Shown here piece by piece: positions 1-14,848 of a DNA stretch of 64,000 bases. The notes under the pieces are model-generated. The model had not been told where the DNA came from. It did no database searches and saw only the letters and a program-made list of their open reading frames with translations. The stretch covers positions 13,162 through 77,161 of the forward strand of contig MFPT01000008.1 in the NCBI GenBank assembly GCA_001782805.1. Direction: 5' to 3'. The first letter of the stretch is position 1. The number at the start of each line of letters is the position of its first letter. The DNA comes from Candidatus Magasanikbacteria bacterium RIFCSPHIGHO2_01_FULL_41_23. GTDB lineage: Bacteria > Patescibacteriota > Patescibacteriia > Magasanikbacterales > UBA922. A program made the translations under genes and the position numbers.

Positions 1-2096
1 CTGCTGAAGTTCGTGACGTGGTTCACCGCGCGCGTAAATTATATTTACTGGCCGGTTTGGAATTGGAACAAGTTGATATCAAAAAAACAGCCGAAAGTCA
101 GATTGAAAAATTAACGGGTAAAAAAATCGGTTGGCGCAAATTTGTCTATGGAGCCGGTGGGGCAATTGGCGGTTTGCTTCTTGGTAAAGGAATTGAAGCG
201 TATAGAAATCTGATGGGTTTTGGGCAACCAACCGAGAGCTTTAAAACTACAGAGGATAATACTGCTGTGGCTAACCATGAAGCCGTCGCGCCAACAGTTG
301 TTGTGGCACCAGCTTTAGAAGCGCTTGAACCAGCATCACCAGAAGTTCCAGTTGAATCTGGTCCGGCACCAATCCAAAATATTTTTTCTGAAGCACTTAC
401 CGCTGGCAAAGGACATACCAGCACATTGGCTATGCTTGATGATGCCCGAGGAATGGAAACTCAGGGATTATCTGATGATTTGTCTGCAAAATGGGAAGCT
501 CTAACAAAATCTCCCGGCAAATTCCACACTTGGGAAATGCAACAGCTCAAAGATTTGGGCTATGTGTACAAAGATGGCCAATGGGGACATCCATTTACTG
601 TTCTTACTGGCGCCAAGCTAAATATATCTTGGGATGAAGCGGCCAATAATGGCCAAGGTGGTTTTAAAGCCGAATACGAAAAACATGATTTGGGTTTTAG
701 CGAGGCGCAAAAACGTGGGGGAGTACATTTCCGTGATTCTGGTGCTGGCAAAAATACTGCGTCACCCAATGTAGAAGCAAGTGCAAAAGCCGAACGAGTT
801 TTGCCAACAGGAACCAAAGAAATGTCTCCCGCAGATAAGTCAGCGTTCTTGACACAGTATAAATCTCAATTTCAAGGATTATCTACCACCGAACAGACTT
901 CAGGCAACACTTCACCAGACACTCAAAAAATCCAAATTGATCCTACAAAAAATCATTTTGAATTGTATCCAAATGATGTCGTGGGAGAACAAACGCCAAT
1001 AGTTCCCCGAGGAGTTCCCATTACCGGAGTGGAATTTTTTAATAACGGAACTTTGGCCATGAGTTTTGACGGATCAAATAAGTCTGTGCTTCTTGAACCA
1101 GTTTTGTCCGGATCAAACGAAGTTATTAAATTTATGCCTGTTAGTGCGGCTCGTGAGGCATTACCTTCTGTTACTAACACGGCTCCAAATAGTTCGGTAA
1201 ATCTTGGATATAGTGGAAGAGTGGCTAGTGCCGGAGGCGGTGGAGTTGCGCGCATGGCATTTTATGAATCCTACAAAAATTCCGCCAATGCTCCTGCGAC
1301 AAATGCGACAAGAGTCGAGTCAGGAGGAGGGAAAGCGGATACTGTTGAAGCGCCGAAAGCTGTTGAAAACAAGCCAGAAGTGCCTAAAGCTGGTGAAGTT
1401 AAATCAGGTGCAAGTGGTGCGGATAAAGCTGTTAAACCAGAAGTTGTTAGTGACAAAAAAATAGTTGGAGGGGCAAGCGCGGAAACAGAACCTGTTGATG
1501 ACCGATCTCGGGCTGAGGCATCATCAAAAACCGACAAAATTTTAACAAATGAACAAATTGGCAAAGCAATTGCAGGTTTTGAAAGGCAAATTAGGGTAAA
1601 TTTTATTGACGATATACAAGGATCAGGCACGAATATTCAGAGATTATGGAAAGACGTTCAAGATGGTTTAGTAACTTTGGCAGCAACCGACAACAATTTA
1701 AAAACTATTCTTTCTATCCCAGATGAAATTGATCGTGCTGCAGCAATCATGGGTTATATTGAGAATAGCCCCCGATTCACACCTGATCAAAAATTACTAC
1801 TGACACCGTTTGAGGGTAATGAAGAAACTACAAGAGAAATTCTCGTTGAAGCTAAAGGTAATACAGGATTGGAAAGAACATCTGCTTTAGTGGCACCAGA
1901 TGACACTGGTCGTGGAGTCAAGGTTTTTTATAAGGGGAACGAATATTTTTTTACCGTAGATACTGGAACTATAGGGTATAATAGACAAGGCTTGGTGGTT
2001 GTACATCAACCTGGTGCTGAGGATCTATTGTTGGGTTTACATATTGAGGAGAATACCAAGCCAACTTTAAAATTTTTACAAATCAAGAATACCTAA
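1..2096 (+). CDS. hypothetical protein, 5'-truncated at window edge; one predicted TM segment followed by an A/P/E/K-rich low-complexity region
   Basis: 692-codon ORF (track 18..2096, GTG at 18) whose frame stays open upstream to nt 1. Hydrophobic stretch FVYGAGGAIGGLLLG. No motif I recognise. Confidence 0.5.
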   Translation, partial: AEVRDVVHRARKLYLLAGLELEQVDIKKTAESQIEKLTGKKIGWRKFVYGAGGAIGGLLLGKGIEAYRNLMGFGQPTESFKTTEDNTAVANHEAVAPTVVVAPALEALEPASPEVPVESGPAPIQNIFSEALTAGKGHTSTLAMLDDARGMETQGLSDDLSAKWEALTKSPGKFHTWEMQQLKDLGYVYKDGQWGHPFTVLTGAKLNISWDEAANNGQGGFKAEYEKHDLGFSEAQKRGGVHFRDSGAGKNTASPNVEASAKAERVLPTGTKEMSPADKSAFLTQYKSQFQGLSTTEQTSGNTSPDTQKIQIDPTKNHFELYPNDVVGEQTPIVPRGVPITGVEFFNNGTLAMSFDGSNKSVLLEPVLSGSNEVIKFMPVSAAREALPSVTNTAPNSSVNLGYSGRVASAGGGGVARMAFYESYKNSANAPATNATRVESGGGKADTVEAPKAVENKPEVPKAGEVKSGASGADKAVKPEVVSDKKIVGGASAETEPVDDRSRAEASSKTDKILTNEQIGKAIAGFERQIRVNFIDDIQGSGTNIQRLWKDVQDGLVTLAATDNNLKTILSIPDEIDRAAAIMGYIENSPRFTPDQKLLLTPFEGNEETTREILVEAKGNTGLERTSALVAPDDTGRGVKVFYKGNEYFFTVDTGTIGYNRQGLVVVHQPGAEDLLLGLHIEENTKPTLKFLQIKNT

Positions 2097-2154
2097 TGTT
2101 TTTGCCTCATTTTAACTAAGATATAGTATACACAACTTATCCTCATTATAGGCC

Positions 2155-2190
2155 TTGACAAAAGTTCTATTTTTTGGTATTCTCACCAGT
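2155..2190 (+). promoter_or_regulatory. sigma70-like promoter: TTGACA, 17-nt spacer, TATTCT
   Basis: Read directly: ttgacaaaagttctattttttggtattct. It is followed by ~500 nt with no convincing ORF. Confidence 0.3.
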
Positions 2191-2321
2191 CAATTTAAAT
2201 GGTAAGTTGTGGGAAGAATCCTACCTTACCTATTGACGCCGCTCATTACAAATAATTTATCTGGAAAACAATCAGCAGAGCTTTCCTGGTGGCTAACAAG
2301 CAAAGAATTTTTTCTTTCTTT

Positions 2322-2415
2322 ATTACCCACCAGGAAAACCACCCCATCAGGGGGCTTTGCCTCGACTTGGTCGGGACGAAGTTTACTTCATCCCGAAGGT
2401 CGGGGTGAGCTTCCT
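2322..2415 (+). ncRNA. conserved ~95-nt structured element, copy A (second copy at 4990..5082); putative cis-regulatory leader or small RNA
   Basis: Shares an exact 14-mer ggggtgagcttcct with 4990..5082. The flanks are collinear at ~65-70% identity (cccaccaggaaaaccacccc / cctcacaggaatagcacccc; gaagtt...ggggtgagcttcct in both). Three hairpins are kept in both copies with different sequence: CCCC-ATCA-GGGG vs CCCC-GCTT-GGGG; CTCGAC-TTG-GTCGGG vs CCCCG-ACT-CGGGG; GAAG..CTTC in both. Confidence 0.4.
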
Positions 2416-2671
2416 ATGTGGATACGAGGGTTACCTAAACATACGATTCGTCGTACTGGGTTTTCCCCTCGGCTTGGACTAGATCTGAACTTTTCTCACG
2501 CCAATACTTGTGGAGTGACCGGCATCCAGACATGAAGTTTGGATTCGCTACCGCGATTAACTCCCCGTTCCCACCGTGGAACAAGGGAATCGTGCAAGCG
2601 TTAAAGCTGTGAACAACAACAAGGAGTGATGAGAGCTCATAGAAGGTTTGAGTGGTGTTTCATTCAACGAC

Positions 2672-2690
2672 GGGGCTTTCGAAAAGCCCC
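2672..2690 (+). promoter_or_regulatory. strong GC hairpin GGGGCTTT-CGA-AAAGCCCC immediately 5' of the RBS of the 2702 gene; no U-tract (attenuator or processing hairpin?)
   Basis: Perfect 8-bp stem with a 3-nt loop, seen in sequence. AGGAG at 2691-2695 and ATG at 2702 follow directly. Confidence 0.3.
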
Positions 2691-2701
2691 AGGAGTCACT
2701 C

Positions 2702-3442
2702 ATGAACTGCACCGCTGGACATCTCCTCCCGACCCCGACTCCCGCCTTCTGCCCGACCTGCGGGGTGGCCGTCGTCGCCCCCCCCCCGACCACCTTGACG
2801 GTGACCATCCCGGTCACTGTTCCCCCTGCCAACCTCACGTTCGGGGGGTTGACCCCCCCCCCGACCACCGGGACGACGGCGACCGCGGCGACCACGACCC
2901 CGACGGGCTTCTGCCCCGACTGGATCGTCCGCGGTCTGATCCTCCTGCTCCTTCTGGCCGTCGCCTATGGTCTGATCAAGACCGAGAACCACGCGACGAA
3001 GCAGGACGTGGCCGAGGTCGGGCTGACCACCAACGCCATCCTCGCGATCAGCGTGGAGGCGAGTGGAGCCAGCGTCGACGAGAACGGGACCTACATCGTC
3101 CCGCGTCTCGCGGGGAAGGCCGACCTCGCTGGTCTGGCGAAGAAGTCGGATCTCTCCGGTCTCGCGACCAGTTCGGCTCTGACGGCGCTCGGCAACGAGG
3201 TCGACGGCAACGAGGCGGCGCGAAAGGCCGACGCGAAGGCCTTCCGATCGGCGGTCTACCGCGCCTCGAAGCGGCACGCGACGGCTCTCGCCGCGCTTCC
3301 GCCGCCTGCCACGACCGACCTTTCCGGCCTCGCGACGAAGCAGGACGTGGCCGAGATTCGCGCGGCGATCGACGACGCCCGCGCCCAGGTCGTCGTGACG
3401 CCCGCCGCCCTCCCCCTGCCCGCCCTGCCCGAGGCGCCCTAA
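2702..3442 (+). CDS. hypothetical membrane protein (high-GC cassette): P/T-rich N-terminus, one TM helix, Ala-rich C-terminal region with repeated ATKQDVAE motif
   Basis: The frame of track ORF 2648..3442 gives a coherent protein (TM LILLLLLAVAYGLI; repeats LATKQDVAEV / LATKQDVAEI). The overlapping frames give Arg/Gly-rich nonsense. AGGAG lies 6 nt upstream of ATG 2702 (track start 2648 is TTG). Codon third positions are almost all G/C. Confidence 0.5.
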   Translation: MNCTAGHLLPTPTPAFCPTCGVAVVAPPPTTLTVTIPVTVPPANLTFGGLTPPPTTGTTATAATTTPTGFCPDWIVRGLILLLLLAVAYGLIKTENHATKQDVAEVGLTTNAILAISVEASGASVDENGTYIVPRLAGKADLAGLAKKSDLSGLATSSALTALGNEVDGNEAARKADAKAFRSAVYRASKRHATALAALPPPATTDLSGLATKQDVAEIRAAIDDARAQVVVTPAALPLPALPEAP

Positions 3443-3481
3443 AGCGCAGGGCAACAAACCCCTCCAGATAAACGCCCACCC

Positions 3482-3517
3482 GACGGTCGTGCAGCGCAAT
3501 AGCGTAGCACGACCGTC
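3482..3517 (+). terminator. putative intrinsic terminator: 11-bp perfect stem GACGGTCGTGC / GCACGACCGTC with a 14-nt loop, then a weak T-rich tract
   Basis: Begins 40 nt after the TAA at 3440-3442. Followed by cctcaacctttcttc. Confidence 0.4.
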
Positions 3518-3586
3518 CCTCAACCTTTCTTCATCAACCTAATTGGTGGAGAGCTATATGAGGCTACCAGTTCTTTAAAAAATTTT

Positions 3587-3653
3587 GCACACAGAAGAGT
3601 GATATTGACAGAACGCCATTTGGCGCAAGTTTAAATAGTAGTCTTCTGTGTGC
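3587..3653. repeat. 12-bp perfect inverted repeat GCACACAGAAGA ... TCTTCTGTGTGC enclosing a promoter-like TTGACA (3605-3610) and TTTAAAT
   Basis: Seen in sequence, ~65 nt upstream of the 3718 gene start. Could be an operator framing the promoter or an RNA hairpin. Confidence 0.4.
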
Positions 3654-3717
3654 GAATCAATCTACATTAACCGTAACCGCAACCGCCCCGTGGTCGGGGC
3701 AAGACTGGAGTTGAAGC

Positions 3718-4362
3718 GTGAAGGCGACTTTTTTTTCTTTGCTTTTTTTTCTTTTCCTCAACAACACCCTCAACCCCCGGCTCGCCGCCGGCCAGACGCC
3801 TCCGACCACGACCGTCAGCTGTCTCGGCTGCACGGTGCGGGTGCATCTGCCCCCTCCCGTCGCCCCCCTCCCGTCGCCGTTGCCTCGTGTCCACCTGTCG
3901 GTCGGCGCCAGTGGGGTTTACCTCACGGGCACCACGCTCGGGCAGTACGGATCCGGTTCCGGCGAAGCGAACGTTGAGTTCGTGTTCCCCCTCGGACGAG
4001 TGCGTTGGTTCGAGATTATCGGGCAAGCCTCGTTCGGCGGTGCCTCCGGTGTTCTCTCGGGCTCGGGATCGGTCGGTCTCGGATTCGTCCTCAACGGCGA
4101 CTCGGACATCCGACCGCTCGGCAGCACCCGCCTCTCGACCCTCTTCACCACCCGCGGCCGCGGAACCGGAGACTCCCAGGACTTGCTCACCCTCGGTGGC
4201 AAGCTCCAAATCAACGTCTCGCTCGGTACTACGGCAGGTGTCCAGTGGAATTACTTCCTCGCCTGCGAGGCAGGTAGTTCCATCTATAAGGACGCTGACG
4301 GTCGATCTCACAACGACGGCTGGTACGTCGCTCCCTCCACTGGCCTCCTCCTCCGCCTCTAG
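3718..4362 (+). CDS. secreted beta-rich protein, outer-membrane-beta-barrel-like (high-GC cassette)
   Basis: GTG start with GGAG 8 nt upstream. N-terminal signal-like MKATFFSLLFFLFLNNTLNPRLAAGQ. Gly/Ser/Thr-rich alternating pattern; C-terminus ...GWYVAPSTGLLLRL. A porin-like character is odd for a presumed monoderm CPR organism. Confidence 0.5.
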   Translation: MKATFFSLLFFLFLNNTLNPRLAAGQTPPTTTVSCLGCTVRVHLPPPVAPLPSPLPRVHLSVGASGVYLTGTTLGQYGSGSGEANVEFVFPLGRVRWFEIIGQASFGGASGVLSGSGSVGLGFVLNGDSDIRPLGSTRLSTLFTTRGRGTGDSQDLLTLGGKLQINVSLGTTAGVQWNYFLACEAGSSIYKDADGRSHNDGWYVAPSTGLLLRL

Positions 4363-4579
4363 CGCCCCCCCTACACCCCACCTTGTGCCCCCCCGCACCG
4401 TAAGAGATGGCATCGCAAGACGTCATCAATTCGGTCATCGGCACCCCCGCGCGTCGCAAGACCTCGGGATCCCTCTGGGTTAATGAGTTTGACTCGTTAA
4501 TCAAGAAGGATAATGTTCATTAAAACAAAATAAAAAAACAACCTTGTTATTTTCAAAGTTGTTTGATTTATTTATGTAG

Positions 4580-4652
4580 TGGACCGGACGGGAGTTGAAC
4601 CCGCGCCACTCCGTGTCAAGAGGAGCATGCTGACCGTTAACACTACCGACCC
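4580..4652 (-). tRNA. tRNA-like gene, 73 nt, atypical anticodon arm (isotype undetermined; possibly a degenerate tRNA or attachment-site remnant)
   Basis: Minus-strand sequence: GGGTCGG TA GTGT TAACGGTCA GCAT G CTCCT CTTGACA CGGAG TGGC GCGGG TTCAACT CCCGT CCGGTCC A. The acceptor stem has 7 bp (2 G-U pairs), the D stem 4 bp, the T stem 5 bp, and the T-loop is TTCAACT. The anticodon stem is only 4 bp plus a U-C mismatch with loop CUUGACA (anticodon UGA, C at position 37), or 5 bp with a 9-nt loop. There is no encoded CCA. It lies between the two high-GC islands. Confidence 0.5.
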
Positions 4653-4989
4653 ATAATCCACTACACAAATGAGATTATACTACAAAACTCTTCCGGATGG
4701 AAGAGTCGTAGTGACACGGAGTATGAACCGGCATTTGCCAGCTTGTCCTCTATGTAAGTTAGAATAACACGAGGGGAATTGATTGTCAAAATTGTCAATG
4801 TGTATAACTGTCGCCCGCGCTTTGTTTCTAACATTTAGAACCAGAGCACGCGTGATAACGCGATCGACTTGCTTTAAACTTGTTTATTCTGAGCATATCG
4901 AAGAGTCGAAGAGATCTTTACAACATAAGCAAATATTTTAATTAATACAATTCCTGTGAAGCAAAATGCTGACTACAATAGTCATCAGC

Positions 4990-5082
4990 TTGCCTCACAG
5001 GAATAGCACCCCGCTTGGGGAGCGAACCCCGACTCGGGGGTGAAGTTCTGCTTTACTCCGGCTAGTCTGGGGTGAGCTTCCT
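4990..5082 (+). ncRNA. conserved ~95-nt structured element, copy B, immediately 5' of the Cys-rich lipoprotein gene
   Basis: See copy A. Here the shared 3' block ggggtgagcttcct is followed by a GGAAG hairpin, then GGAGG (5114-5118) and ATG 5126. Confidence 0.4.
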
Positions 5083-5125
5083 GGCGGAAGGTATGTTCTG
5101 TTCTGTTTTTTTTCGGAGGTGTCTT

Positions 5126-6817
5126 ATGGCGAAGTTCGCCATCAACATCGTCGGCCTCTTGGCCGTTGCCCTCGTGGGGTGTATGCCTCACGTGGATTCC
5201 AACAACCCCAATCCCTCCTCGGTGGTGGTCAACACCGGGGACAACATCAGTCTGACCGTCGACCACGATGGCGACGGCTGGACCGACTTCAAGGACAAAG
5301 TGGAGGCCTGTCTGGCCACCACCTCGTCCAAGAAGGAGTACGACATGTGTCTCGACCAGTTCGAGGTCGCCCTCATGACGGGGGCGCTCAAGACCGGTGA
5401 CTGCGACGACGACAACGCGCTCGTTAAGCCGGGAGCGATCGAGGTGTGCGACGGCAAGGACAACAACTGTGTTGGCGGCGTAGACGAGGGATGCACGGAC
5501 GCATCCTGCGCCGACACCAACGCGTGTACCGACGACGACTTCGTCGTGGGCAAGGGGTGTGAAAACACCACCAAGTCCTGCGACGACGGCAACGTCTGCA
5601 CGACGGATTCGTGCAACCCCGCGACCGGCTGCACGACGACGCCGAACACGGTCATCTGCAACGACGGCGACGCGTGTACGGACGACAACGTCTGCTTTCA
5701 AGGCGCCTGCATCAGCGGCGCCGAGAAGGACTGCGACGACGGTAACGTCTGTACGACCGACGCGTGCAACCCCGCGACCGGCTGCACGACGACGCCGAAC
5801 ACGGCCACCTGCAACGACGGGAACGTCTGCACGACCGGCGACGTCTGCAAAGACAGCGCCTGTACGACAGGGCTGGTCGTCACGATCTGTGACGACAAGA
5901 ACCCGTGTACCACGGACTCGTGTGACCCGAAGATGGGTTGCAAAAACGTGGACACCGTCGACGGCTCGTGTTGCTTCGGCAACACAGGCAAGTACGGCGA
6001 TGCGTTCTGTGTCCCGTCCGAGCCGAAGCCTCCCTCCTCCCTCCCTCTTCCAACCGGTTACAAGTGGGGGTGCATGGGCGGCGCCACCGTGTCCTCTCCT
6101 GGCCACTGTACGAGTTGCAAGGAGGCGGACGACGACGGTGTCTGCGCGATCGGGGAGCTCTGCTCGAACGATCTCGACGACGACGGCGACGGACTCGTTG
6201 ATTGCGAGGACAGCGAGTGCGCGGCCAACACGGCGTGCAACCCGGTCTGTGCGACTAACGCCGACTGCGACGACGCCGATCCGACCACGGTTGACACCTG
6301 CACCCTCACCGGGTGCTGGCACGTCAAGCCGGTTCCTCCCGCCTGCACTCCGGCCTGCGCTGGCAAGACTTGCGGCGACGACGGCTGTGGCGGATTCTGC
6401 GGTGCATGTATCGGCGGGCAAATCTGCCAGCTCGGTGCGTGCGTCGCTCCACCCTCCACGTCTGAGTGCGTGGTCGACAACGACTGCGCGCCCGGCGGCC
6501 AGTACGCCAAGTGCTGGCAGGGGAAGTGTGTCCAGGTCTTGCCGGGTTCCTGCGGACCTTTCTCTATCTCGGTGATCGCACCGAGTGCAAAGAAAGTGGA
6601 TCTGGAATGGTACAAGCAGAGTGGTCCAGCCTCCACGACGGAGTCGGTGAGCACGGGTACCTTCAACAGCCACACCGGCGAGTGCTCGGTCGTGGCCTGG
6701 GGGTTCGTCGCCCCCAACGGGTGCACGTGCGAGTCCCTCTACGGGACGTCGCCCTGCGGTCAGCAACCTGCCTCTCCTGGGGTCTACGGATGCTGGCATA
6801 ACAAGCCGGCTCAGTAG
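5126..6817 (+). CDS. cysteine-rich tandem-repeat lipoprotein (high-GC cassette 1): lipobox signal, ~10 repeats of C-x-D-G-N-x-C-T-x-D-x-C-x4-G-C (~25-aa period), a DDDGDG acidic motif, CGDDGCGGFCGAC, C-terminal domain
   Basis: Signal MAKFAINIVGLLAVALVGC (lipobox LVGC). Repeats such as CDDGNVCTTDSCNPATGCTTTPNT are visible. GC3-rich codons (acg, gcg, gtg, ggc). I take the ATG at 5126 with GGAGG upstream rather than the track start 5072. The 636-aa antisense ORF is considered an artefact. Confidence 0.75.
   Translation: MAKFAINIVGLLAVALVGCMPHVDSNNPNPSSVVVNTGDNISLTVDHDGDGWTDFKDKVEACLATTSSKKEYDMCLDQFEVALMTGALKTGDCDDDNALVKPGAIEVCDGKDNNCVGGVDEGCTDASCADTNACTDDDFVVGKGCENTTKSCDDGNVCTTDSCNPATGCTTTPNTVICNDGDACTDDNVCFQGACISGAEKDCDDGNVCTTDACNPATGCTTTPNTATCNDGNVCTTGDVCKDSACTTGLVVTICDDKNPCTTDSCDPKMGCKNVDTVDGSCCFGNTGKYGDAFCVPSEPKPPSSLPLPTGYKWGCMGGATVSSPGHCTSCKEADDDGVCAIGELCSNDLDDDGDGLVDCEDSECAANTACNPVCATNADCDDADPTTVDTCTLTGCWHVKPVPPACTPACAGKTCGDDGCGGFCGACIGGQICQLGACVAPPSTSECVVDNDCAPGGQYAKCWQGKCVQVLPGSCGPFSISVIAPSAKKVDLEWYKQSGPASTTESVSTGTFNSHTGECSVVAWGFVAPNGCTCESLYGTSPCGQQPASPGVYGCWHNKPAQ
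5612..5651 (+). repeat. 40-nt exact intragenic direct repeat, copy 1 (tgcaaccccgcgaccggctgcacgacgacgccgaacacgg)
   Basis: Identical string at 5765..5804; one Cys-repeat unit duplicated at the DNA level. Confidence 0.6.
5765..5804 (+). repeat. 40-nt exact intragenic direct repeat, copy 2
   Basis: Identical to 5612..5651. Confidence 0.6.
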
Positions 6818-7109
6818 GTTCCCTCCCACCTCACGATCTCGTACGCAAGTACTTGAGATCACCACGCCACCTGTCGTGAAGAAAACAACAGGCAATCCAC
6901 ATTTTTTATTTTTCTATTAAGGAAAGTAGAAAGTGCAGATTCAAATAATCCTCTTTACAATTTAGGTTTTAACTAGGCCAGTGATTATAACAGTAATAAT
7001 TTAGTGTTTTAATCGCTGGCTTAGTTTTGTTTTACCGCATGAGGGATTTCGTAGCTGGCATTCCTTACACCAAAATGCGGTTCAACTGCAAACGAGCAAG
7101 GAGCTCCAA

Positions 7110-9149
7110 ATGCAGCGTTCTATGTTTCTTATCGTGACCCTCTGGGTCTTGGCCCTCGTTGGCTGTGCTGACGAGAACATCATCAACCTCGTGGCCCCGG
7201 ACAACGACCACGACAACTACACGAGCCTGACGGAGGAACAGGCTCACGAGATGGGTTACGCGTCAGTGGACGCTGCCCTCAAGTTCGGCGACTGTGCCGA
7301 TGCCAACCCGGCCATCAACCCGGGTGCGGCGGAGGTGTGCGACGGCAAGGACAACGACTGCGACGGCAAGACCGATGGGCAGGACGACAATCTCGTCGCC
7401 TGCAACGACGGTAGTGCCTGCACCACCGACGCCTGCACGAGCGGTCAGTGCGTGAGCACGGCCGTGACTTGCAACGACAACTCGGCCTGCACCACGGACT
7501 CTTGCGACCCGGCGACGGGCTGCACGAACACCGCGGTGAACTGCAACGACGGCAACGTGTGTACGACGGACGCGTGCGATCTCGTGCTGGGATGCACGCA
7601 TTCGAACAACACGGCGCAATGCGACGACAGCAACGTGTGCACGACTGAGGTGTGCAACTCGCTGACTGGCGGTTGCACCTACGCGGCCAACAACTGCAAC
7701 GACGGCAACGTGTGTACGACGGACGCGTGCGATCTCGTGCTGGGATGCACGACGACGCCGAACAACACGGCGCAGTGCGATGACGACGATGCGTGCACGA
7801 TAGAGGACGCCTGTTTTCAGGGGTTCTGCATCGGCGGCGCCCCGGCACAGTGCGACGACGGCAACGTCTGCTTCGACGATGCATGCAACGACGGAGCTTG
7901 TGTTCAGGGTTCGTCGATCGCGTGCGATGACGGCAACGCCTGTACGACGGACTCGTGCGATCCCGCGCTGGGATGCACGACCGCGGCAGTCAACTGCAAC
8001 GACAGCAACGTGTGCACGACCGACTCCTGCGACACGGACACGGGTTGTGTCAACACGAACAACGCGTTGACCTGTACCGATTCAAACGCCTGCACCACCG
8101 ACGACTTCTGTCTCGGCGGTGCTTGCGTGTCCGGCGCAACCACCAACTGCAACGACAGTTCGGCCTGCACCACGGATTCGTGCGATCCCGCGCTGGGATG
8201 CATGAACACCGCGGTGGACTGCAACGACGGCAACGTCTGCACGACCGACGCCTGTGACGCGGCGACCGGTTGCAAGCACACCGACAACACGGCGCAGTGC
8301 GACGATGGGAACATGTGCACCGTTGACACCTGCGACGGGGTGGACGGGTGCGAAAACGCACCAATGCCCGACTGCTGTGTCGGGGACGCCATGTGCGCCG
8401 GCTCTGAGCCGGCTGGGCTTACGGCTGACTTCCGGTGGGGATGTACGGTCAACTCCGGTCCCCCGACCGGAACCTGCGTGTCCTGCTTGGACTCGGACGG
8501 GGATGGCTGGTGCGACTCGCCTACGGAGTCGGACTGCGACAACACGTTCGACGAGGACGGCGACGGACTCGTGGACTGCGCTGACGCGGACTGCGACAAC
8601 GATGCGGCCTGTGTCGTCCCCTGTGTGCCCGATTGTACGGGCATGGAGTGCGGCGACGATGGTTGTGGCGGTTCGTGCGGATCGTGCGCGGACGGCGACA
8701 AGTGCAACGCAACTTTCCAGTGTGAGGAGGAGCCTCGGCTCTCGATCACCTGGACCGCTCCCATGAGCGGTGTGCCCCAGAACGCGGGCGGGCAGTTGGT
8801 CCTCCTGGCCAAGTGCTACGACGCGGTTGGGGGAACGGTTGTGTCGTGGGGCGTCAAGGCCTACGGCCCCACCGCCTCCACCTCTCTCTCATGGACGGCT
8901 GACACCTGGTTCGAGCCAGCCGACTGCATCGCCCAAGTCGTGGAAGTGGTCGGCGGCAAGACCGTCTGGTATGCGAACGGACTCTACGGAGTCCTGTCGT
9001 ACATCTGGGATGGTCTCGCCGTCACCACTGTCAAGGGCAACGGCACGTCGGGCTGGCCCTTCTTCCCAGACACGGACAGCGACGGTGACTGCACGCTCGA
9101 TGGCGCCGACGCGTGCCCGTTCGATGGCTACGACACCTGCGTCCCGTAG
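7110..9149 (+). CDS. cysteine-rich tandem-repeat lipoprotein (high-GC cassette 2), paralog of 5126..6817: lipobox, ~11 Cys repeats, DSDGDGWCD / DEDGDGLVDCADADCDND Ca-binding-like acidic motifs, CGDDGCGGSCGSC, C-terminal domain
   Basis: AAGGAG 7 nt upstream of ATG 7110. Signal MQRSMFLIVTLWVLALVGC. Same repeat consensus and domain order as cassette 1. High GC3. The antisense ORF 7904..8812 is considered an artefact. Confidence 0.75.
   Translation: MQRSMFLIVTLWVLALVGCADENIINLVAPDNDHDNYTSLTEEQAHEMGYASVDAALKFGDCADANPAINPGAAEVCDGKDNDCDGKTDGQDDNLVACNDGSACTTDACTSGQCVSTAVTCNDNSACTTDSCDPATGCTNTAVNCNDGNVCTTDACDLVLGCTHSNNTAQCDDSNVCTTEVCNSLTGGCTYAANNCNDGNVCTTDACDLVLGCTTTPNNTAQCDDDDACTIEDACFQGFCIGGAPAQCDDGNVCFDDACNDGACVQGSSIACDDGNACTTDSCDPALGCTTAAVNCNDSNVCTTDSCDTDTGCVNTNNALTCTDSNACTTDDFCLGGACVSGATTNCNDSSACTTDSCDPALGCMNTAVDCNDGNVCTTDACDAATGCKHTDNTAQCDDGNMCTVDTCDGVDGCENAPMPDCCVGDAMCAGSEPAGLTADFRWGCTVNSGPPTGTCVSCLDSDGDGWCDSPTESDCDNTFDEDGDGLVDCADADCDNDAACVVPCVPDCTGMECGDDGCGGSCGSCADGDKCNATFQCEEEPRLSITWTAPMSGVPQNAGGQLVLLAKCYDAVGGTVVSWGVKAYGPTASTSLSWTADTWFEPADCIAQVVEVVGGKTVWYANGLYGVLSYIWDGLAVTTVKGNGTSGWPFFPDTDSDGDCTLDGADACPFDGYDTCVP
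7538..7598 (+). repeat. 61-nt exact intragenic direct repeat, copy 1 (aactgcaacgacggcaacgtgtgtacgacggacgcgtgcgatctcgtgctgggatgcacg)
   Basis: Identical at 7691..7751 (153 nt apart, two repeat units). A shorter repeat tgcgatcccgcgctgggatgca also occurs at ~7955 and ~8185. Confidence 0.6.
7691..7751 (+). repeat. 61-nt exact intragenic direct repeat, copy 2
   Basis: Identical to 7538..7598. Confidence 0.6.
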
Positions 9150-9304
9150 ACGCGCCCTCCCACCCGCTCTTTCCTTCTCCACCGCCCTCCTGAGGCATGC
9201 GGTGGCACACGATAGTGTGAGCCTCTCCCTTTGCGCAAGCCAAGGGACTCTCATCATTTTCTTCATCTGGAATGGAGAAACGTGACTAGAGTCATGTTTG
9301 ACGT

Positions 9305-9351
9305 CACACCGAAATTATAACTTGACATATTATAATTTCGGTGTGTATACT
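9305..9351 (+). promoter_or_regulatory. perfect 16-bp palindrome CACACCGAAATTATAA-n9-TTATAATTTCGGTGTG overlapping a promoter (TTGACA 9322-9327, 18-nt spacer, TATACT 9346-9351) for the DUF4143 ATPase gene
   Basis: Seen in sequence. The -35 box sits inside the 9-nt spacer of the palindrome, the classic geometry of a repressor operator. The ATG at 9360 gives a very short leader. Confidence 0.4.
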
Positions 9352-9359
9352 TATCCTGT

Positions 9360-10595
9360 ATGGTTATAAAAATACGACAATTATCCCAAAAATTGGTACA
9401 GGCGGCACGATCCTTTCCGGCGGTTGTTATCACTGGTCCGCGCCAATCCGGCAAGACGACACTGGTGCGTAATTTGTTCAAAAAAACGCACAACTATGTT
9501 AACTTGGAAGATCCTGATACGCGCGCCCGTGCCCTCTCTGATCCACGGCTATTTTTTGCATCCTTCAATTCGCCGCGTCTTATCCTTGACGAGATACAGT
9601 ATGTACCGCAACTTTTATCGTATGTTAAATCTGCTATTGATGAACACCGTACTTCCGGGCGTTTCATCATAACTGGATCACAGCAATTTAGCCTGATGCA
9701 AGGAGTGAGTGAATCATTGGCCGGCAGAGCCGCTATCCTGACTTTATTGCCGTTTTCGTATGGTGAAAGGATTGGACAAGGAGAAAAATTATTACCTTTC
9801 ACTAATTGGACAAACCGTCTGGCTCAAAAAAAAATAAATACCAGTCCGCATCCCTCGATTGCTTCGCTGTTGGTGCGAGGATCATATCCAACACCAACTC
9901 GCTCTTCTGTGGATTATTCTTTATGGTACGGTTCGTATTTGGCTACGTACCTTGAACGGGACATTCGTAATCTGTCTCAGGTGGGTGATCTTCAGCAATT
10001 TGAACATTTTTTGCGCTTATTGGCGAGCCGTACCGGACAGATACTGGATTTGGCCGGCTTAGCACGTGATTTAGGAATTTCTCAGCCAACTGCGAAACGC
10101 TGGTTGTCTATTCTTGAAACTGGCTACCAAGTTTTACTCCTCTATCCTTATTTCAAAAATATAGGTAAGCAGGTAGTAAAGCGCCCTAAAGTTTTTATCA
10201 CTGACACTGGTCTCGCTTGTTACTTACTAGGGATAAATGATCCTAAAACTTTAACGAACCATCCACAATTTGGCTCGCTGTTTGAAACCTTTGTAGTGAC
10301 CGACATCTGGAAGAGATCTTTGCACAGCGGTATCAAGCCGCGTTTATATTATTTTAGAAGTCACGATGATTTGGAAGTTGATCTGGTGATTGAAGACGGT
10401 AAGGGGCTGCACTGTGTTGAAATTAAAAGTTCTATGACTGTAAAACCCCAACACGCCTCGAGTTTGGTTCGTTTTATCCGTACGCCAACAATTGCTCGAT
10501 ATATTCAATCGTCATCCTTAATATCTTTATCTACTACCGGCCCGATTTCTGCCGGAATTGTGAATTATCATTGGTCAGATTTCTTCTCTATCTAA
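9360..10595 (+). CDS. AAA+ ATPase, DUF4143 family (COG1373-like)
   Basis: Walker A VITGPRQSGKTT. The domain order and C-terminal DUF4143-like region are typical of this family, which is common in CPR and archaeal genomes. Confidence 0.8.
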   Translation: MVIKIRQLSQKLVQAARSFPAVVITGPRQSGKTTLVRNLFKKTHNYVNLEDPDTRARALSDPRLFFASFNSPRLILDEIQYVPQLLSYVKSAIDEHRTSGRFIITGSQQFSLMQGVSESLAGRAAILTLLPFSYGERIGQGEKLLPFTNWTNRLAQKKINTSPHPSIASLLVRGSYPTPTRSSVDYSLWYGSYLATYLERDIRNLSQVGDLQQFEHFLRLLASRTGQILDLAGLARDLGISQPTAKRWLSILETGYQVLLLYPYFKNIGKQVVKRPKVFITDTGLACYLLGINDPKTLTNHPQFGSLFETFVVTDIWKRSLHSGIKPRLYYFRSHDDLEVDLVIEDGKGLHCVEIKSSMTVKPQHASSLVRFIRTPTIARYIQSSSLISLSTTGPISAGIVNYHWSDFFSI

Positions 10596-10603
10596 AAGAA
10601 GCT

Positions 10604-12124
10604 ATGTTAAATTTTATTTCTTCAACTATTCCTGATTTTTTACTGCCGGGATTTTTTTTATTTTTTATTTTTGCCTTACTGATTTTTTTCTTAATCAGAG
10701 AACGCAAAACCGAATATGTTTTGTACGCGTTAATGATTTGGTTCCCACTGGAAAATTTCGCGCTTAATTTTGTGAGTCCGTATTGGTACGATGTTTTCAA
10801 ATATGTACCGGAAGTAATTTTATATTCTATTTTAATCGGTCTTTTTTTTAAACATTGGTCTCGTAATCGGACTGTTATATTACCACAATCACTCCGTCGT
10901 CCTTTTTTATTTTTTATTATTGTGGCAATTTTGTCATTACTATTTAATTGGTATGATCCGACAATTTGGCTTTTGGGTGTACGACAATTGATTCGTTTTG
11001 TGGCGGTTTTTTTGATTGTGTTATTGGCGTCATATTCTGAATCAGTCCGACGCACATTGTTAAAGTTGATGATTGGGATGGTTATGTTTCAGGCCTTGTT
11101 TGGTTTAGTGCAATTTGCGTTTGGTGGTCGACTAGATGTTTATTTATTTCCCGTTCGGGTAGTAAGTATCGGAAATTTGGCAACGGTTGGTGGTAATGAA
11201 TTATTTTGGACACCGGGCACACGAGTGTTTGCCACTATGGGGCGGTATGATCAGTTGGGAAGTTTTTTAATGCTTGGATTAATTGTGGTTGTTTCTTGGC
11301 TTGTGGTATATAAAAAAATAATCACGACAAATCTGGAAAAAAAAGTATTTCCTCCGCTCGCAATAACCGTGTTAGGATTATTAGTGAGTGTTTTAATTTT
11401 AACAAAATCTCGCGCCAGTTGGACTGCTGTGCTTGTTTCAATCGTATTGACTAGTTATTATTTATTTAAAAACAAAAAAATTATTTATTTAATTTCCACC
11501 GGTGTCGTTGTACTTACTTTATATGTGTTTGGTTTTATTTTAACGCATGATAATATAATGGCTTTAACCGAAAAAGATAATCAAACTGTGGCCGAACGAA
11601 TTATTGAAGCGGGAAGTTGGCGCGCGTGGCAAGAAAGTTATGAAGGCTATGGCCGAATTTTTTTTATGGTGAATACGCCGCGCGTGGTGGTGGCTGATTC
11701 GCCGGTTTTTGGGGTTGGTCCGGGAAATTATGGTGGGGGAGTTGCCGCGGCACTGGGGAATACTAAAGTTTATGATCGGTTACATTTGCCGTTTGGCGTG
11801 CAAAATACCTATGGACAAATTGATAACAGTTGGTTTAGTGTTTGGGGGGAATTTGGTACAATGGGATTGGGAGTGATAATTTGGATTTTTATTATTATGG
11901 GTAGAGATGCCAAAAAAATATATGGCGAAACGTCTCATGCGGACACAAAATTTTTGTCCGCCACGTTGTTTGGCTTGATTATTGCGATTGTGGTGATTGG
12001 TTTTTTTGGGCCTTATTTTGAATTCCGAACACTGATGTTTAATTTTTGGTTGATTGTGGGATTATTTTATACTACTGGCCAGCATGAAACTAGATCGGCT
12101 AATTTTCTTTTTAGAAAAGTTTAA
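10604..12124 (+). CDS. polytopic membrane protein, O-antigen ligase / Wzy_C-like
   Basis: About 12 predicted TM helices. The periplasmic-loop motif LTKSRASWTAVLV resembles the Wzy_C signature. ATG 10604 is taken as the start (track 10571 is TTG and overlaps the upstream gene). Confidence 0.6.
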   Translation: MLNFISSTIPDFLLPGFFLFFIFALLIFFLIRERKTEYVLYALMIWFPLENFALNFVSPYWYDVFKYVPEVILYSILIGLFFKHWSRNRTVILPQSLRRPFLFFIIVAILSLLFNWYDPTIWLLGVRQLIRFVAVFLIVLLASYSESVRRTLLKLMIGMVMFQALFGLVQFAFGGRLDVYLFPVRVVSIGNLATVGGNELFWTPGTRVFATMGRYDQLGSFLMLGLIVVVSWLVVYKKIITTNLEKKVFPPLAITVLGLLVSVLILTKSRASWTAVLVSIVLTSYYLFKNKKIIYLISTGVVVLTLYVFGFILTHDNIMALTEKDNQTVAERIIEAGSWRAWQESYEGYGRIFFMVNTPRVVVADSPVFGVGPGNYGGGVAAALGNTKVYDRLHLPFGVQNTYGQIDNSWFSVWGEFGTMGLGVIIWIFIIMGRDAKKIYGETSHADTKFLSATLFGLIIAIVVIGFFGPYFEFRTLMFNFWLIVGLFYTTGQHETRSANFLFRKV

Positions 12125-12131
12125 TTTTTTT

Positions 12132-13130
12132 ATGTCTTCAATTCCGCTTCCAATTGACTGTGTGATTGGCATCAATTATATTTGTAATTCGCGTTGTGTT
12201 ATGTGCGATATTTGGAAAATAAAATCATTTCCGGAATTGTTGCCCGAAGAATATCTTAAATTACCGGCCAGTTTGTTGGATGTGAATATTTCCGGAGGCG
12301 AAACATTTTTGCGCAAAGATATTCCGGAAGTGATTAGAGCAGTACGAACGGCTTGTCCCCAAGCGCGGGTGGTTATTTCCACCAATGGTTTTATGCCCGC
12401 GTTCATTGAACAACAAATGAAAAAAATTTTGGAAATTGATCCGACCATTGGCGTGGCCATATCGATTGACGGGGTTGGTGCAATGCATGAAACCGTTCGC
12501 CGAATTCCTGATGCGTATAAAAAATCAACGGAAACTCTGGAACGTTTGCAATCGTTGGGCATGAAAAATTTACGATTTGCGTTTACGATTATTCCGGAAA
12601 ACGTAACGCATTTCAGTAAAGTGTATGATGATGCCTGTGAGCGGCGGATTCAATTTACACATTCGTATGCCCAGAGTTCGGATAATTATTTTGGCGGTAT
12701 CCATATTATGAATGATCCGGATTTGCGGGTGTTGCGCCAACAATACGAACATATTATCGGGCGTGAATTGCAATCGTGGAATCTAAAGCGCTGGGCGCGG
12801 GCTTTTTATGCGTATAGTTTGTATCGGTTTATCAATGAAAAAAAACAAGTTTTAAATAATGATCCGGGGACACGGTTTTTCTTTATGGCGTCTGACGGAG
12901 TGGTATATCCATCGGTTGTTCACAATTACGCAATGGGGAATTTGAAAAATTTTAATTCGTGGGGAGAATTGTGGAATAGTGAGGAAGCTGAAACCGCGCG
13001 CGCAAAAGTACGAACTGAAGGCAAACCAGCCTGGATGATTTGTACAGCGCGGACGGCGATTAAAAAACATCCGTGGCAGGTAGCGAGCTGGGTGGTTAAA
13101 AATAAATTTTTTGGTTTGGAATTGGTTTGA
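12132..13130 (+). CDS. radical SAM protein
   Basis: CNSRCVMC = CxxxCxxC cluster near the N-terminus. The internal ATG 12132 is chosen because track start 12054 overlaps the previous gene by 70 nt. Confidence 0.7.
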   Translation: MSSIPLPIDCVIGINYICNSRCVMCDIWKIKSFPELLPEEYLKLPASLLDVNISGGETFLRKDIPEVIRAVRTACPQARVVISTNGFMPAFIEQQMKKILEIDPTIGVAISIDGVGAMHETVRRIPDAYKKSTETLERLQSLGMKNLRFAFTIIPENVTHFSKVYDDACERRIQFTHSYAQSSDNYFGGIHIMNDPDLRVLRQQYEHIIGRELQSWNLKRWARAFYAYSLYRFINEKKQVLNNDPGTRFFFMASDGVVYPSVVHNYAMGNLKNFNSWGELWNSEEAETARAKVRTEGKPAWMICTARTAIKKHPWQVASWVVKNKFFGLELV

Positions 13131-14373: not shown

Positions 14374-14631
14374 ATGATGATGAAAATTGAGAGAAATAAC
14401 AATAGGTTTGATCAGATAAAATCTTGGATTCATTCTTTATTTTGCAATGAATCAGATAAATCGGTTAATTTTCAAACCAAACAATTACTCAATCAAAAAT
14501 TTAGTGATAGTTGTGACATCGTTTCATTTTCTGACTCGGCATCAGCTATAAATCATCTTGATGCTATTATTAAAAAACAACAAGGAGGGTATGGAGATAC
14601 ATTACAGGAGGAGTTTTATCAAAGAATTTGA
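14374..14631 (+). CDS. putative antitoxin (small protein upstream of and overlapping the RelE/YafQ-like toxin)
   Basis: 85-aa ORF with its own promoter and SD, overlapping the toxin by ~40 nt. No family motif recognised, so the call rests on context. Confidence 0.35.
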   Translation: MMMKIERNNNRFDQIKSWIHSLFCNESDKSVNFQTKQLLNQKFSDSCDIVSFSDSASAINHLDAIIKKQQGGYGDTLQEEFYQRI

Positions 14632-14848
14632 AAAAGTACCACTAAAAATTCAAATAGCTTGTCGAGATCGGATTAAACTTTTTTCTTCAGATCAATTTCA
14701 TCCGCAACTTCATAATCATGCCTTATTGGGGAATTTTTTAGGATATCGTAGTATAAATGTTATGGCTGACTGGCGAGCAATCTTTGTCAAAGAAGGCGAA
14801 GACTGTACATTTTTTTATGTTAGGACACATAGTCAGTTGTACCACTGA
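14591..14848 (+). CDS. type II toxin, RelE/YafQ family (mRNA interferase)
   Basis: The C-terminus HALLGNFLGYRSINVMADWRAIFVKEGEDCTFFYVRTHSQLY parallels the YafQ/RelE pattern (H-x-L-x-G-x-x-x-G-Y-R ... I-Y ... R-x-G-x-H-x-x-L-Y). AAGGAGG precedes the ATG. Confidence 0.6.
   Translation: MEIHYRRSFIKEFEKVPLKIQIACRDRIKLFSSDQFHPQLHNHALLGNFLGYRSINVMADWRAIFVKEGEDCTFFYVRTHSQLYH

Follow-up and report, generated by a model that had tools for sequence, protein, structure and literature searches.

Genes of the GC-rich cassette

The window analyzed here is a 64-kb stretch of contig MFPT01000008.1 from a Candidatus Magasanikbacteria bacterium, which belongs to the candidate phyla radiation (CPR). Two of its genes, p1 and p2, encode cysteine-rich lipoproteins and close a run of four consecutive GC-rich genes on the plus strand (gA, gB, p1 and p2), referred to below as the cassette or the island. 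The names p1, p2, p3, gA and gB are used for genes of the window, and L-numbers denote retrieved loci and contigs. p1 and p2 were recognized by open reading frame (ORF) calling, Pfam matches and the G+C content of third codon positions (GC3), and the frames of gA and gB were picked by codon-position GC periodicity (GC3). The four genes are as follows.

2702-3442, plus strand: gA, GC3 0.89, with a CxxC-type N-terminus, a Pro/Thr-rich stretch, one transmembrane (TM) helix and an Ala-rich repeat region
3718-4362, plus strand: gB, GC3 0.76, a signal peptide followed by a Gly-rich sequence of all-beta type
5126-6817, plus strand: p1, a 563-amino-acid (aa) lipoprotein, third in the GC-rich run
7110-9149, plus strand: p2, a 679-aa lipoprotein, last in the GC-rich run

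The cassette consists of a single-pass membrane protein (gA), a secreted beta-rich protein (gB) and one or two Cys-repeat lipoproteins. The architecture of gA is matched by proteins encoded at L114:114-1043, L087:1870-3360 and L123:3834-4760. Counterparts of gB, all Gly/aromatic-rich and with a signal peptide, are encoded at L084 1555-2310, L087 3725-4336, L114 1229-2446, L122 3-683 and L123 5186-5905. A single-sequence AF2 model of gB (pLDDT 44) shows a signal helix and then strands, and is too poor for a beta-barrel test. In several lineages the last residue of the gB-like proteins is W, Y or F. An aromatic C-terminus of this kind is a feature of outer-membrane beta-barrels in diderm bacteria and is odd in CPR bacteria, which are thought to have no outer membrane. 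A Pfam search with gA-like and gB-like proteins from four lineages returned nothing, and searches of NCBIfam and PHROGs with p1, p2, gA and gB gave no match except one weak PHROG hit.

Architecture of the lipoproteins p1 and p2

p1 and p2 are paralogous proteins predicted to be lipidated and anchored in the membrane. Their signal peptides, MAKFAINIVGLLAVALVGC in p1 and MQRSMFLIVTLWVLALVGC in p2, each close in the lipobox LVGC, confirming what a preliminary description of this DNA had read from both ORFs. The lipobox pattern [LVI][ASTVI][GAS]C is matched by LVGC at Cys19 in p1 and p2 and by LAGC at Cys16 in p3, and lipoboxes are present in most cassette counterparts of related lineages. Genes for Lgt and LspA are both missing among the genes of the 64-kb window.

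Cysteine accounts for 11-12% of each protein. The preliminary description had proposed a Pfam search of the repeat family; this search identified PF00526 (Dicty_CTDC) in both proteins above the Pfam cut-off of 27 bits, p2 scoring 148.6 bits (E 3.6e-44) over nine stretches and p1 55.5 bits (E 4.8e-15) over three. The CTDC unit of p1 and p2 contains four Cys, has a period of 23-26 aa and follows the pattern C.[DN]..xC[TF].[DE].C...GC. A regular expression recovers about 13 units in p2 (aa ~98-420) and about 6-7 in p1. The earlier count of ~10 units is therefore an average of the two proteins. A MopE-like motif (PF11617, cut-off 27) lies ahead of the array in both (p1, aa 92-121, 45.4 bits; p2, aa 61-89, 48.2 bits). 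Beyond the array, p1 carries a DGDG/CGDDGCGGFCGAC module and then a C-terminal domain at aa ~470-560 (...CTC...SPGVYGCWHN), and p2 carries a DGDG/CGDDGCGGSCGSC module and then an orphan C-terminal region. The two proteins align with 36-41% identity, and the acidic DGDG and CGDDGCGG(F/S)CG(A/S)C segments described earlier are found in both. The predicted layout runs from a lipidated Cys through a flexible acidic linker, a putative MopE-like metal-binding motif, the CTDC rod and DGDG Ca-binding-like motifs to a variable head.

Each CTDC unit is presumably a beta-hairpin pair with its four Cys as two disulfides. In an AF2 model of p2 built with 40 homologs, the CTDC array (residues ~100-420) has a pLDDT of 81-96 and consists of successive paired 6-residue strands, while the linker and the C-terminal region are of low confidence. 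A sequence search of PDB gave nothing for p2 and, for p1, only a marginal Teneurin-4 fragment (E 0.0064).

Directly 3' of both stop codons (6818-6835 for p1, 9150-9170 for p2) lies a C-rich stretch with CCCTCCCACC in common, and the GC-rich tract reaches ~70-100 nt into the 3' flank of both genes.

Composition, annotation and intragenic repeats

GC3 is 0.83 in p1 and 0.82 in p2, compared with 0.29-0.40 in 22 other window genes (host ~0.35), and the spacers between the island genes drop to 0.34-0.45 GC, in agreement with the strong GC3 bias and AT-rich surroundings first reported. Codon usage, a follow-up that had also been suggested, sets the island apart from the host (r -0.36 to -0.59; -0.44 to -0.59 for relative synonymous codon usage, RSCU) and correlates with that of GC-rich bacteria (r 0.64-0.91).

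In public annotation, the calls for p1 (4985-6799) and gB (3667-4413) are on the minus strand, gA is read in a different frame (2626-3471), and the NCBI record shortens p2 to 315 aa. Likewise, where L087 encodes a lipoprotein of 663 aa, the public call is an ORF of 714 aa on the minus strand (5886-8030). Gene callers whose training genome is AT-rich choose a wrong strand or frame at this locus, so that protein databases largely miss this surface-protein family.

Two exact direct repeats were found inside the lipoprotein genes.

5610-5651 and 5763-5804, plus strand: exact 42-nt direct repeat in p1, with a 153-nt spacing equal to two units
7539-7598 and 7692-7751, plus strand: exact 60-nt direct repeat in p2, with a 153-nt spacing equal to two units

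These had been given as 40 nt at 5612/5765 and 61 nt at 7538/7691; the repeats are real, and their sizes and positions are corrected here. The only long direct repeats in the window are such intragenic CTDC units. Because the perfect 60-nt patch of p2 stands within blocks that are otherwise ~38% identical and diverged on either side, it looks like a short conversion tract and not like a fresh duplication. Of the two origins proposed earlier, recent conversion is supported for the exact patches. The CTDC arrays are identical across all retrieved assemblies of the population (13 contigs and four metagenome-assembled genomes, MAGs), and no variation in repeat number was seen among them; only a 38-nt deletion, one single-nucleotide polymorphism and one unrelated scaffold end differ.

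The deletion, in the assembly L002 (window 6767-6804; L002 3549-3551), shifts the frame at the 3' end of p1 with loss of SPGVYGCWHN, and nucleotides 1-192 of L002 are unrelated GC-rich sequence joined inside gA. Both features are either structural variants or assembly errors. A diversity-generating retroelement was considered as well and was dropped, since no reverse transcriptase family was found in any ORF of the window.

Conservation of the cassette across Magasanikbacteria

The cassette lies between a giant gene and a conserved right flank.

18-2096, plus strand: C-terminal part of a giant surface-type protein (2831 aa), the left flank of the slot; GC3 0.29, native
10571-13130, plus strand: genes for an O-antigen-ligase-like Wzy_C protein and a radical-SAM/SPASM protein; this conserved right flank served as bait for syntenic loci

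Related loci were retrieved through the flanking radical-SAM gene, supplemented by a metagenome scan. The same slot (giant gene, GC-rich block, Wzy, radical SAM, GT4, GHL15) was found in ~17 Magasanikbacteria lineages, comprising L084, L087, L088 and L089, at least 12 more from the metagenome scan, and L122 and L123. Giant genes likewise border the slot in L087, L123 and L004, and a locus in an Azambacteria MAG has a similar layout. Where the block is complete (L087, L114 and L123), the gene order is that of the window: a TM/coiled-coil protein, a beta-rich protein with signal peptide, and one or two Cys-rich lipoproteins. The GC3 of the lipoprotein genes varies widely among these loci and is listed here beside that of the radical-SAM gene.

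Window: lipoprotein 0.82, radical SAM 0.40
L084: lipoprotein 0.94, radical SAM 0.21
L087: lipoprotein 0.97-0.98, radical SAM 0.40
L098: lipoprotein 0.96, radical SAM 0.39
L118: lipoprotein 0.94, radical SAM 0.25
L104: lipoprotein 0.80, radical SAM 0.26
L106: lipoprotein 0.57, radical SAM 0.26 (intermediate)
L114: lipoprotein 0.33-0.42, radical SAM 0.32 (fully native version)

Background GC3 in the clade reaches 0.6-0.69, and no sampled lineage has a background of 0.8 or more, or one as high as its own high-GC cassette.

The C-terminal domain of p1 is specific to the clade and was found only in CPR cassettes. In CPR loci it was detected by tblastn in L106 (3e-21), L094 (4e-20) and L118 (2e-7) and by BLASTP in L114 (2e-5), and an alignment of eight proteins was built. 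A HMMER search of 1.84 billion representative proteins gave 16 matches, 13 of which carry the domain at their extreme C-terminus in proteins of 495-692 aa. One of the matches is named, as Patescibacteria, and both genomic contexts that were fetched contain the same cassette. No match to the domain was found by tblastn in 80 loci from GC-rich phyla. These observations partly establish that the cassette has long resided in the clade, at one fixed slot, with alleles sometimes swapped between related lineages.

In one relative, L102 (positions 1-5200), whose radical-SAM gene is 90% identical to that of L104 at the nucleotide level, the cassette is absent. The slot is occupied there by a helicase/primase-like ORF of 719 aa together with small genes of native GC, apparently a different inserted element.

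The sharp compositional contrast, together with the many contigs that break in the region, could also be produced by a chimeric assembly or by binning that joins a GC-rich contaminant to a CPR contig. The junctions are identical on 13 contigs from separate assemblies and in four NCBI MAGs, however, so the locus is not a chimera; the pattern also recurs at this slot in samples taken at unrelated sites, and AT-rich spacers alternate with GC-rich genes inside single contigs. The chance of such an artefact is practically negligible.

The proposed recent acquisition from a GC-rich donor

The preliminary description regarded p1 and p2 as xenologs from a GC-rich donor. In this explanation, the genes were acquired recently from Myxococcota or from a host bacterium and have not yet ameliorated. 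Several observations fit: the codon usage of the island anticorrelates with that of the host and resembles that of GC-rich bacteria, the top matches to the repeat region come from Myxococcota, Planctomycetota and Binatia, where the genes are at native GC, and gB-like proteins often finish in an aromatic residue as diderm outer-membrane proteins do. More than 4000 database proteins share the CTDC repeat, mostly from Myxococcota-type MAGs, and across 79 loci of GC-rich phyla the homologs agree with their flanks in GC content.

Against this, the best identity to outside proteins is at most 50% and is restricted to the repeats. Repeat-region identity is low and uninformative both to GC-rich phyla (45-50%) and to CPR (40-42%), and with unit shuffling in addition, a tree of the repeats would be uninformative too. 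The non-repeat domains have no outside homolog: in a tblastn search of 80 loci from GC-rich phyla, with the N-terminal and C-terminal portions of the two lipoproteins as well as gA and gB as queries, only short Cys motifs were matched, and the last 265 aa of p2 retrieved from 5.8 billion proteins only p2 itself and a short Cys motif, leaving the xenolog proposal for p2 with no donor ortholog of its C-terminus. A genomic island would be expected to be missing from the same site in relatives; here the slot is filled by the syntenic cassette in ~17 CPR lineages, a native-GC version included, and the cassette is missing in L102. The spacers that part the island genes have 34-45% GC and do not resemble those of GC-rich genomes. 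Neither an integrase nor a phage family was found in the window, no mobility genes were found, and scans of viral contigs with p2 and gA gave no relatives. The relatives of the p1 domain all fall within the same CPR clade, an outcome that the preliminary description had itself set down as counting against transfer; it indicates that the signal is compositional, not horizontal. With the p1 domain confined to CPR cassettes and the slot kept across the lineages, the xenolog proposal is abandoned for p1, and recent transfer as a whole is considered very unlikely. Atypical composition is routinely taken as a sign of recent transfer; at this clade-wide syntenic cassette, composition alone misleads.

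Persistence of high GC and signs of recombination

Colinear orthologs of the island genes are present in both L104 and L106. Amino acid identity between the lipoproteins of the two is 54%, and third-position identity at conserved 4-fold codons is 0.38, compared with 0.28 expected by chance, which is near saturation. The GC3 of these lipoprotein genes is 0.80 and 0.58, compared with 0.26 in the flanking gene. As GC3 stays high despite near-saturated synonymous sites, this comparison goes part of the way to showing that the high GC is a locus-specific state outlasting synonymous turnover and would not be a leftover of recent transfer. Either the GC content is kept up by a local force, or the decay of alleles is outpaced by their renewal from a GC-rich pool.

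What the island contains does not follow the similarity of the flanks: L104 shares island orthologs with the more distant L106 but shares none with L108 and L102, which are closer to it. Between the closely related L103 and L099, an island gene has dS 0.73 and dN 0.20, compared with 0.17 and 0.006 in the flank (4-fold and ~33-fold). The island GC3 of the pair is equal (0.74 and 0.76), and its pairwise substitution spectrum is symmetric, which cannot be polarized without an outgroup. Content that differs between lineages, cassette switching and fast divergence agree with the variable surface locus envisaged in the preliminary description.

At least 11 contigs end inside the GC-rich cassette (L096, L097, L098, L104, L105, L107, L108, L088, L089, L122 and L002), including contigs of 82, 145, 210 and ~475 kb. 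Strain heterogeneity, repeats or GC-dependent loss of coverage are possible reasons for these breaks. That many long contigs halt at this locus is a concern for assembly.

The incongruence between island content and flank relatedness, the absence of the cassette from L102 and an island divergence far above that of the flanks also suit continual replacement. Under this explanation, a switching locus would re-import alleles, faster than they ameliorate, from an unsampled and natively GC-rich reservoir such as a GC-rich CPR lineage. The span of GC3 from 0.33 to 0.98 could then be an age series, and backgrounds up to GC3 0.6-0.69 do exist in the clade. However, in 17 of 17 lineages island GC3 lies above the lineage's own background or equals it (L114), and none of the sampled lineages reaches a background GC3 of 0.8. 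Every version has the AT-rich spacers, and the database matches to the p1 domain that were checked were all in a discordant context. We take this explanation seriously but consider it unlikely.

Extent of the GC-rich blocks and the two-hairpin leader

GC enrichment begins ~100 nt before the start codons, continues to ~100 nt after the stop codons and then drops to ~0.40. Because it extends beyond the coding ends, it is not purely a codon effect, and the GC-rich blocks look transcription-unit sized. A promoter-like site and two copies of a leader were recognized in the AT-rich spacers ahead of gA and p1.

2155-2183, plus strand: sigma-70-like promoter (TTGACA-17-TATTCT with TG) ahead of the gA leader, by consensus match only
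2282-2423, plus strand: leader copy 1; its AT-rich hairpin (2282-2337) has arms of 26 nt and is followed by a GC-rich hairpin of ~90 nt (2333-2423) ending in GGGGTGAGCTTCCT; fold z -6.95
4950-5090, plus strand: leader copy 2, an AT-rich hairpin (4950-5004) and a GC-rich hairpin (5000-5090); fold z -8.06

The 3' end of leader copy 2 (5077-5090 plus a T-run) is terminator-like and lies immediately ahead of the ribosome-binding site and ATG of p1. A third copy of the two-hairpin leader occurs at L089 630-790, and five pairs show compensatory changes among the three copies. The leader hairpins have no Rfam family, tRNA being the only Rfam match in the window, and a covariance model of the leader recovered only its three training copies in 0.5 Mb. 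The leader could be an mRNA stabilizer or an attenuator.

Selection on transcripts would offer another cause of the enrichment, with GC-rich synonymous sites and untranslated regions (UTRs) stabilizing the mRNAs of abundant surface proteins or tuning their translation. The transcription-unit-like limits of the blocks, ~100 nt on either side with AT-rich promoter spacers, fit this explanation, as do the very stable and conserved 5' leader hairpins and the constant amino acid composition of the lipoproteins while GC3 spans 0.33-0.98. In gA-like genes alone, a weak and non-significant amino acid trend with GC3 was seen (n=6). On the other side, the scaled per-site coefficient needed (~2-4) is implausibly high for synonymous selection in slow-growing bacteria with small genomes, and one lineage (L114) does well at native GC. 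We judge transcript selection to be quite unlikely as the main cause.

Proposed origin of the GC enrichment

With moderate confidence, we favor a reading in which an old surface cassette occupies a fixed slot and its high GC is maintained at the locus by a recombination-linked bias. Recombination and allelic exchange would be unusually frequent at this locus. A GC-favoring bias tied to that recombination (GC-biased conversion) would keep the transcribed blocks GC-rich, and the AT-rich promoter and leader spacers would be held AT-rich by function and turnover. GC-biased conversion is our leading guess for the cause of the enrichment and the weakest step of this reading. Recombination-linked GC bias is ranked first because the locus carries so much recombination-type signal, followed by import from a reservoir and then by transcript-level selection; none of the three is demonstrated. 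Under the Li-Bulmer model, with the scaled bias (B) taken as the ln of the odds ratio of GC3 and host GC3 as the mutational equilibrium, the bias required would be ~2 in this genome and ~4 in L084, L087 and L118.

Several points weigh against this reading. We know of nothing documented for bacterial GC-biased conversion that comes near a B of ~2-4. The AT-rich spacers within the island are contrary to a uniform GC-biased conversion, and the UTR flanks, at ~0.60 GC, lie below the third positions (0.8-0.98). The amino acid composition of the lipoproteins is unchanged over the GC3 range, which fits selection on synonymous sites or mRNA better. Between lineages, the gA-like and gB-like genes have no significant sequence similarity and correspond only in architecture and position, by which they are probably homologous. 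The C-terminal region of p2 is an orphan, and the history of p2 is therefore less well anchored than that of p1. Finally, the adhesin role discussed below is drawn from architecture and context.

The cassette exists in native, intermediate and extreme GC states, and a local force on base composition needs explaining. A broader proposal, possible but doubtful in our view, is that in CPR bacteria a GC-driving process restricted to the locus rewrites the surface cassette by whole transcription units, bringing third positions to 80-98% G+C in genomes with 25-40% GC3 and leaving promoter spacers untouched. Recombination-coupled biased repair and transcript-templated conversion are candidates for such a process. 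If true, there would be isochore-like blocks in these genomes, long inherited and varying in strength between sister lineages, that conceal genes from standard callers.

Neighboring genes and a second conserved slot

The remainder of the window is a cell-envelope locus with Wzy-like ligases, radical SAM proteins, many glycosyltransferases, sugar-nucleotide enzymes and a DUF11 protein. Three further features were examined.

4579-4652, minus strand: tRNA-Ser(TGA) of 74 nt, located mid-island in a spacer of normal AT content; Rfam 45.6 bits
9360-10595, plus strand: AAA_14/DUF4143 ATPase gene of native GC, between p2 and Wzy in this lineage alone
23697-24680, minus strand: p3, a lipoprotein of 327 aa (GC3 0.51) that has a single CTDC unit as well as TSP3-like motifs

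The tRNA-Ser gene is present in the island of this lineage only. Integration at the tRNA was considered and rejected because the islands of relatives contain no tRNA-Ser. At 74 nt, this tRNA has no space for the long variable arm that is typical of tRNA-Ser in bacteria. The AAA_14/DUF4143 gene occurs between p2 and Wzy only here and so represents an insertion into the slot. Its strong promoter-like site (TTGACA-18-TATACT) is overlapped by a perfect inverted repeat of 16 nt (9305-9345). Among the glycosyltransferase genes, two overlapping 85-aa ORFs at 14374-14848, one with a weak match to the YafQ toxin, may be a toxin-antitoxin pair.

p3 scores 26.0 bits against PF00526 in one stretch, slightly under the 27-bit cut-off, and 20.4 bits (E 4.2e-4) against TSP_3 (PF02412), below the cut-off of 25 bits. 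A weak NCBIfam match to MtsC reaches 25 bits (cut-off 350), and TSP_3 matches are on record for related cassette proteins. The preliminary description had presented p3 as a third paralog of native GC with thrombospondin type 3 repeats; the lipobox and one CTDC unit uphold the relationship, its GC3 is intermediate rather than native, and the TSP_3 assignment stays below threshold. A second conserved slot adjoins the DUF11/CLIPPER gene, and in L089 (10190-12835, minus strand) and L084 (13440-16538, minus strand) it holds CTDC lipoproteins of 881-1032 aa with GC3 0.84-0.89. p3 is their positional counterpart and may be a decayed copy of the second-slot lipoprotein.

Possible function and comparison with known systems

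The cassette protein beside Wzy is ~32% identical where the radical-SAM protein is 83% identical. This fast divergence, the lipobox, the Ca-binding-like motifs, the variable head, the giant-protein and glycan neighbors and the modeled fold together suggest a stalk-and-head role in attachment or recognition. The cassette would then encode a rapidly evolving cell-surface attachment apparatus, in which the CTDC rod may serve as a rigid stalk presenting the variable head. Lipoproteins of the p1/p2 type are good candidates for attachment molecules of episymbiotic CPR bacteria.

The closest likeness is to Dicty_CTDC lipoproteins encoded in MAGs of Myxococcota, Planctomycetota and Binatia, such as P0010 and P0110, which have the same ~24-aa unit (C-x-D-x-N-x-C-T-x-D-x-C-x4-5-G-C). 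P0010 and P0110 share with p1 and p2 the lipobox, the acidic linker, the MopE-like motif, the long CTDC array and a variable C-terminal domain. The resemblance to repeats of myxobacterial lipoproteins noticed in the preliminary description is thus well founded, as the family is abundant in Myxococcota-type lipoproteins. The latter differ in that their GC content equals that of their own genome, in their size (mostly 1000-1190 aa) and in having no C-terminal domain of the p1 type. p1 and p2 are new members of this poorly studied bacterial Dicty_CTDC lipoprotein family. No function test of the bacterial family was found in the literature searched, where the repeat is treated almost solely in Dictyostelium.

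A structural likeness was found to the heavy chain of the Gal/GalNAc lectin of Entamoeba histolytica. In a Foldseek search of PDB with the p2 model, the Cys-rich region of this adhesin gave the sole significant matches (PDB 9gjf, 9gjg and 9gjb; E 7.5e-7 to 7e-6, probability 0.99-1.0). Like the predicted p2 array, this is an extended disulfide-rich region of a surface protein, and the likeness is one of local fold only, without implying membership of the same family. The lectin differs from p2 in being a eukaryotic type I membrane protein, with 15-16% sequence identity and low TM-scores, the latter owing to the long and flexible rod shape of the two.

O-antigen and capsule switching loci are hypervariable, lie between conserved flanks, recombine alleles and keep a composition long unlike that of the genome. 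The cassette resembles them as a surface locus of lasting atypical composition and itself adjoins a Wzy/glycosyltransferase locus. In those clusters, however, GC lies below that of the genome and the genes encode enzymes, whereas in the cassette GC is shifted upward, to as much as 0.98 GC3, in AT-spaced blocks that encode surface proteins. No description of a GC-rich (hyper-GC3) conserved protein cassette in CPR was found in the literature searched.

Among CPR bacteria, Peribacteria from the same aquifer as this genome encode large Cys-rich extracellular proteins with signal peptides and a weak likeness to Myxococcus Cys-rich repeats (PMC4736985). A role in attachment has been proposed for them, and strain variation is concentrated there (PMC4736985). 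These proteins are larger (~1655 aa), and their likeness to p1 and p2 is by description only; no compositional contrast was reported, because the Peribacteria genomes have 58.5% GC overall (PMC4736985). A parallel in composition is offered by Cryptosporidium canis and C. felis, in which subtelomeric, lineage-specific genes for secreted host-interaction proteins are GC-elevated in an AT-rich genome (PMC10438818). The degree of elevation varies among related species, and its cause is unsettled, the authors favoring selection (PMC10438818). Cryptosporidium differs in being a eukaryote and in the subtelomeric position of the genes. Compared with these systems, the cassette is a hypervariable surface locus with a persistent atypical composition, unusual in its direction, magnitude and block structure.

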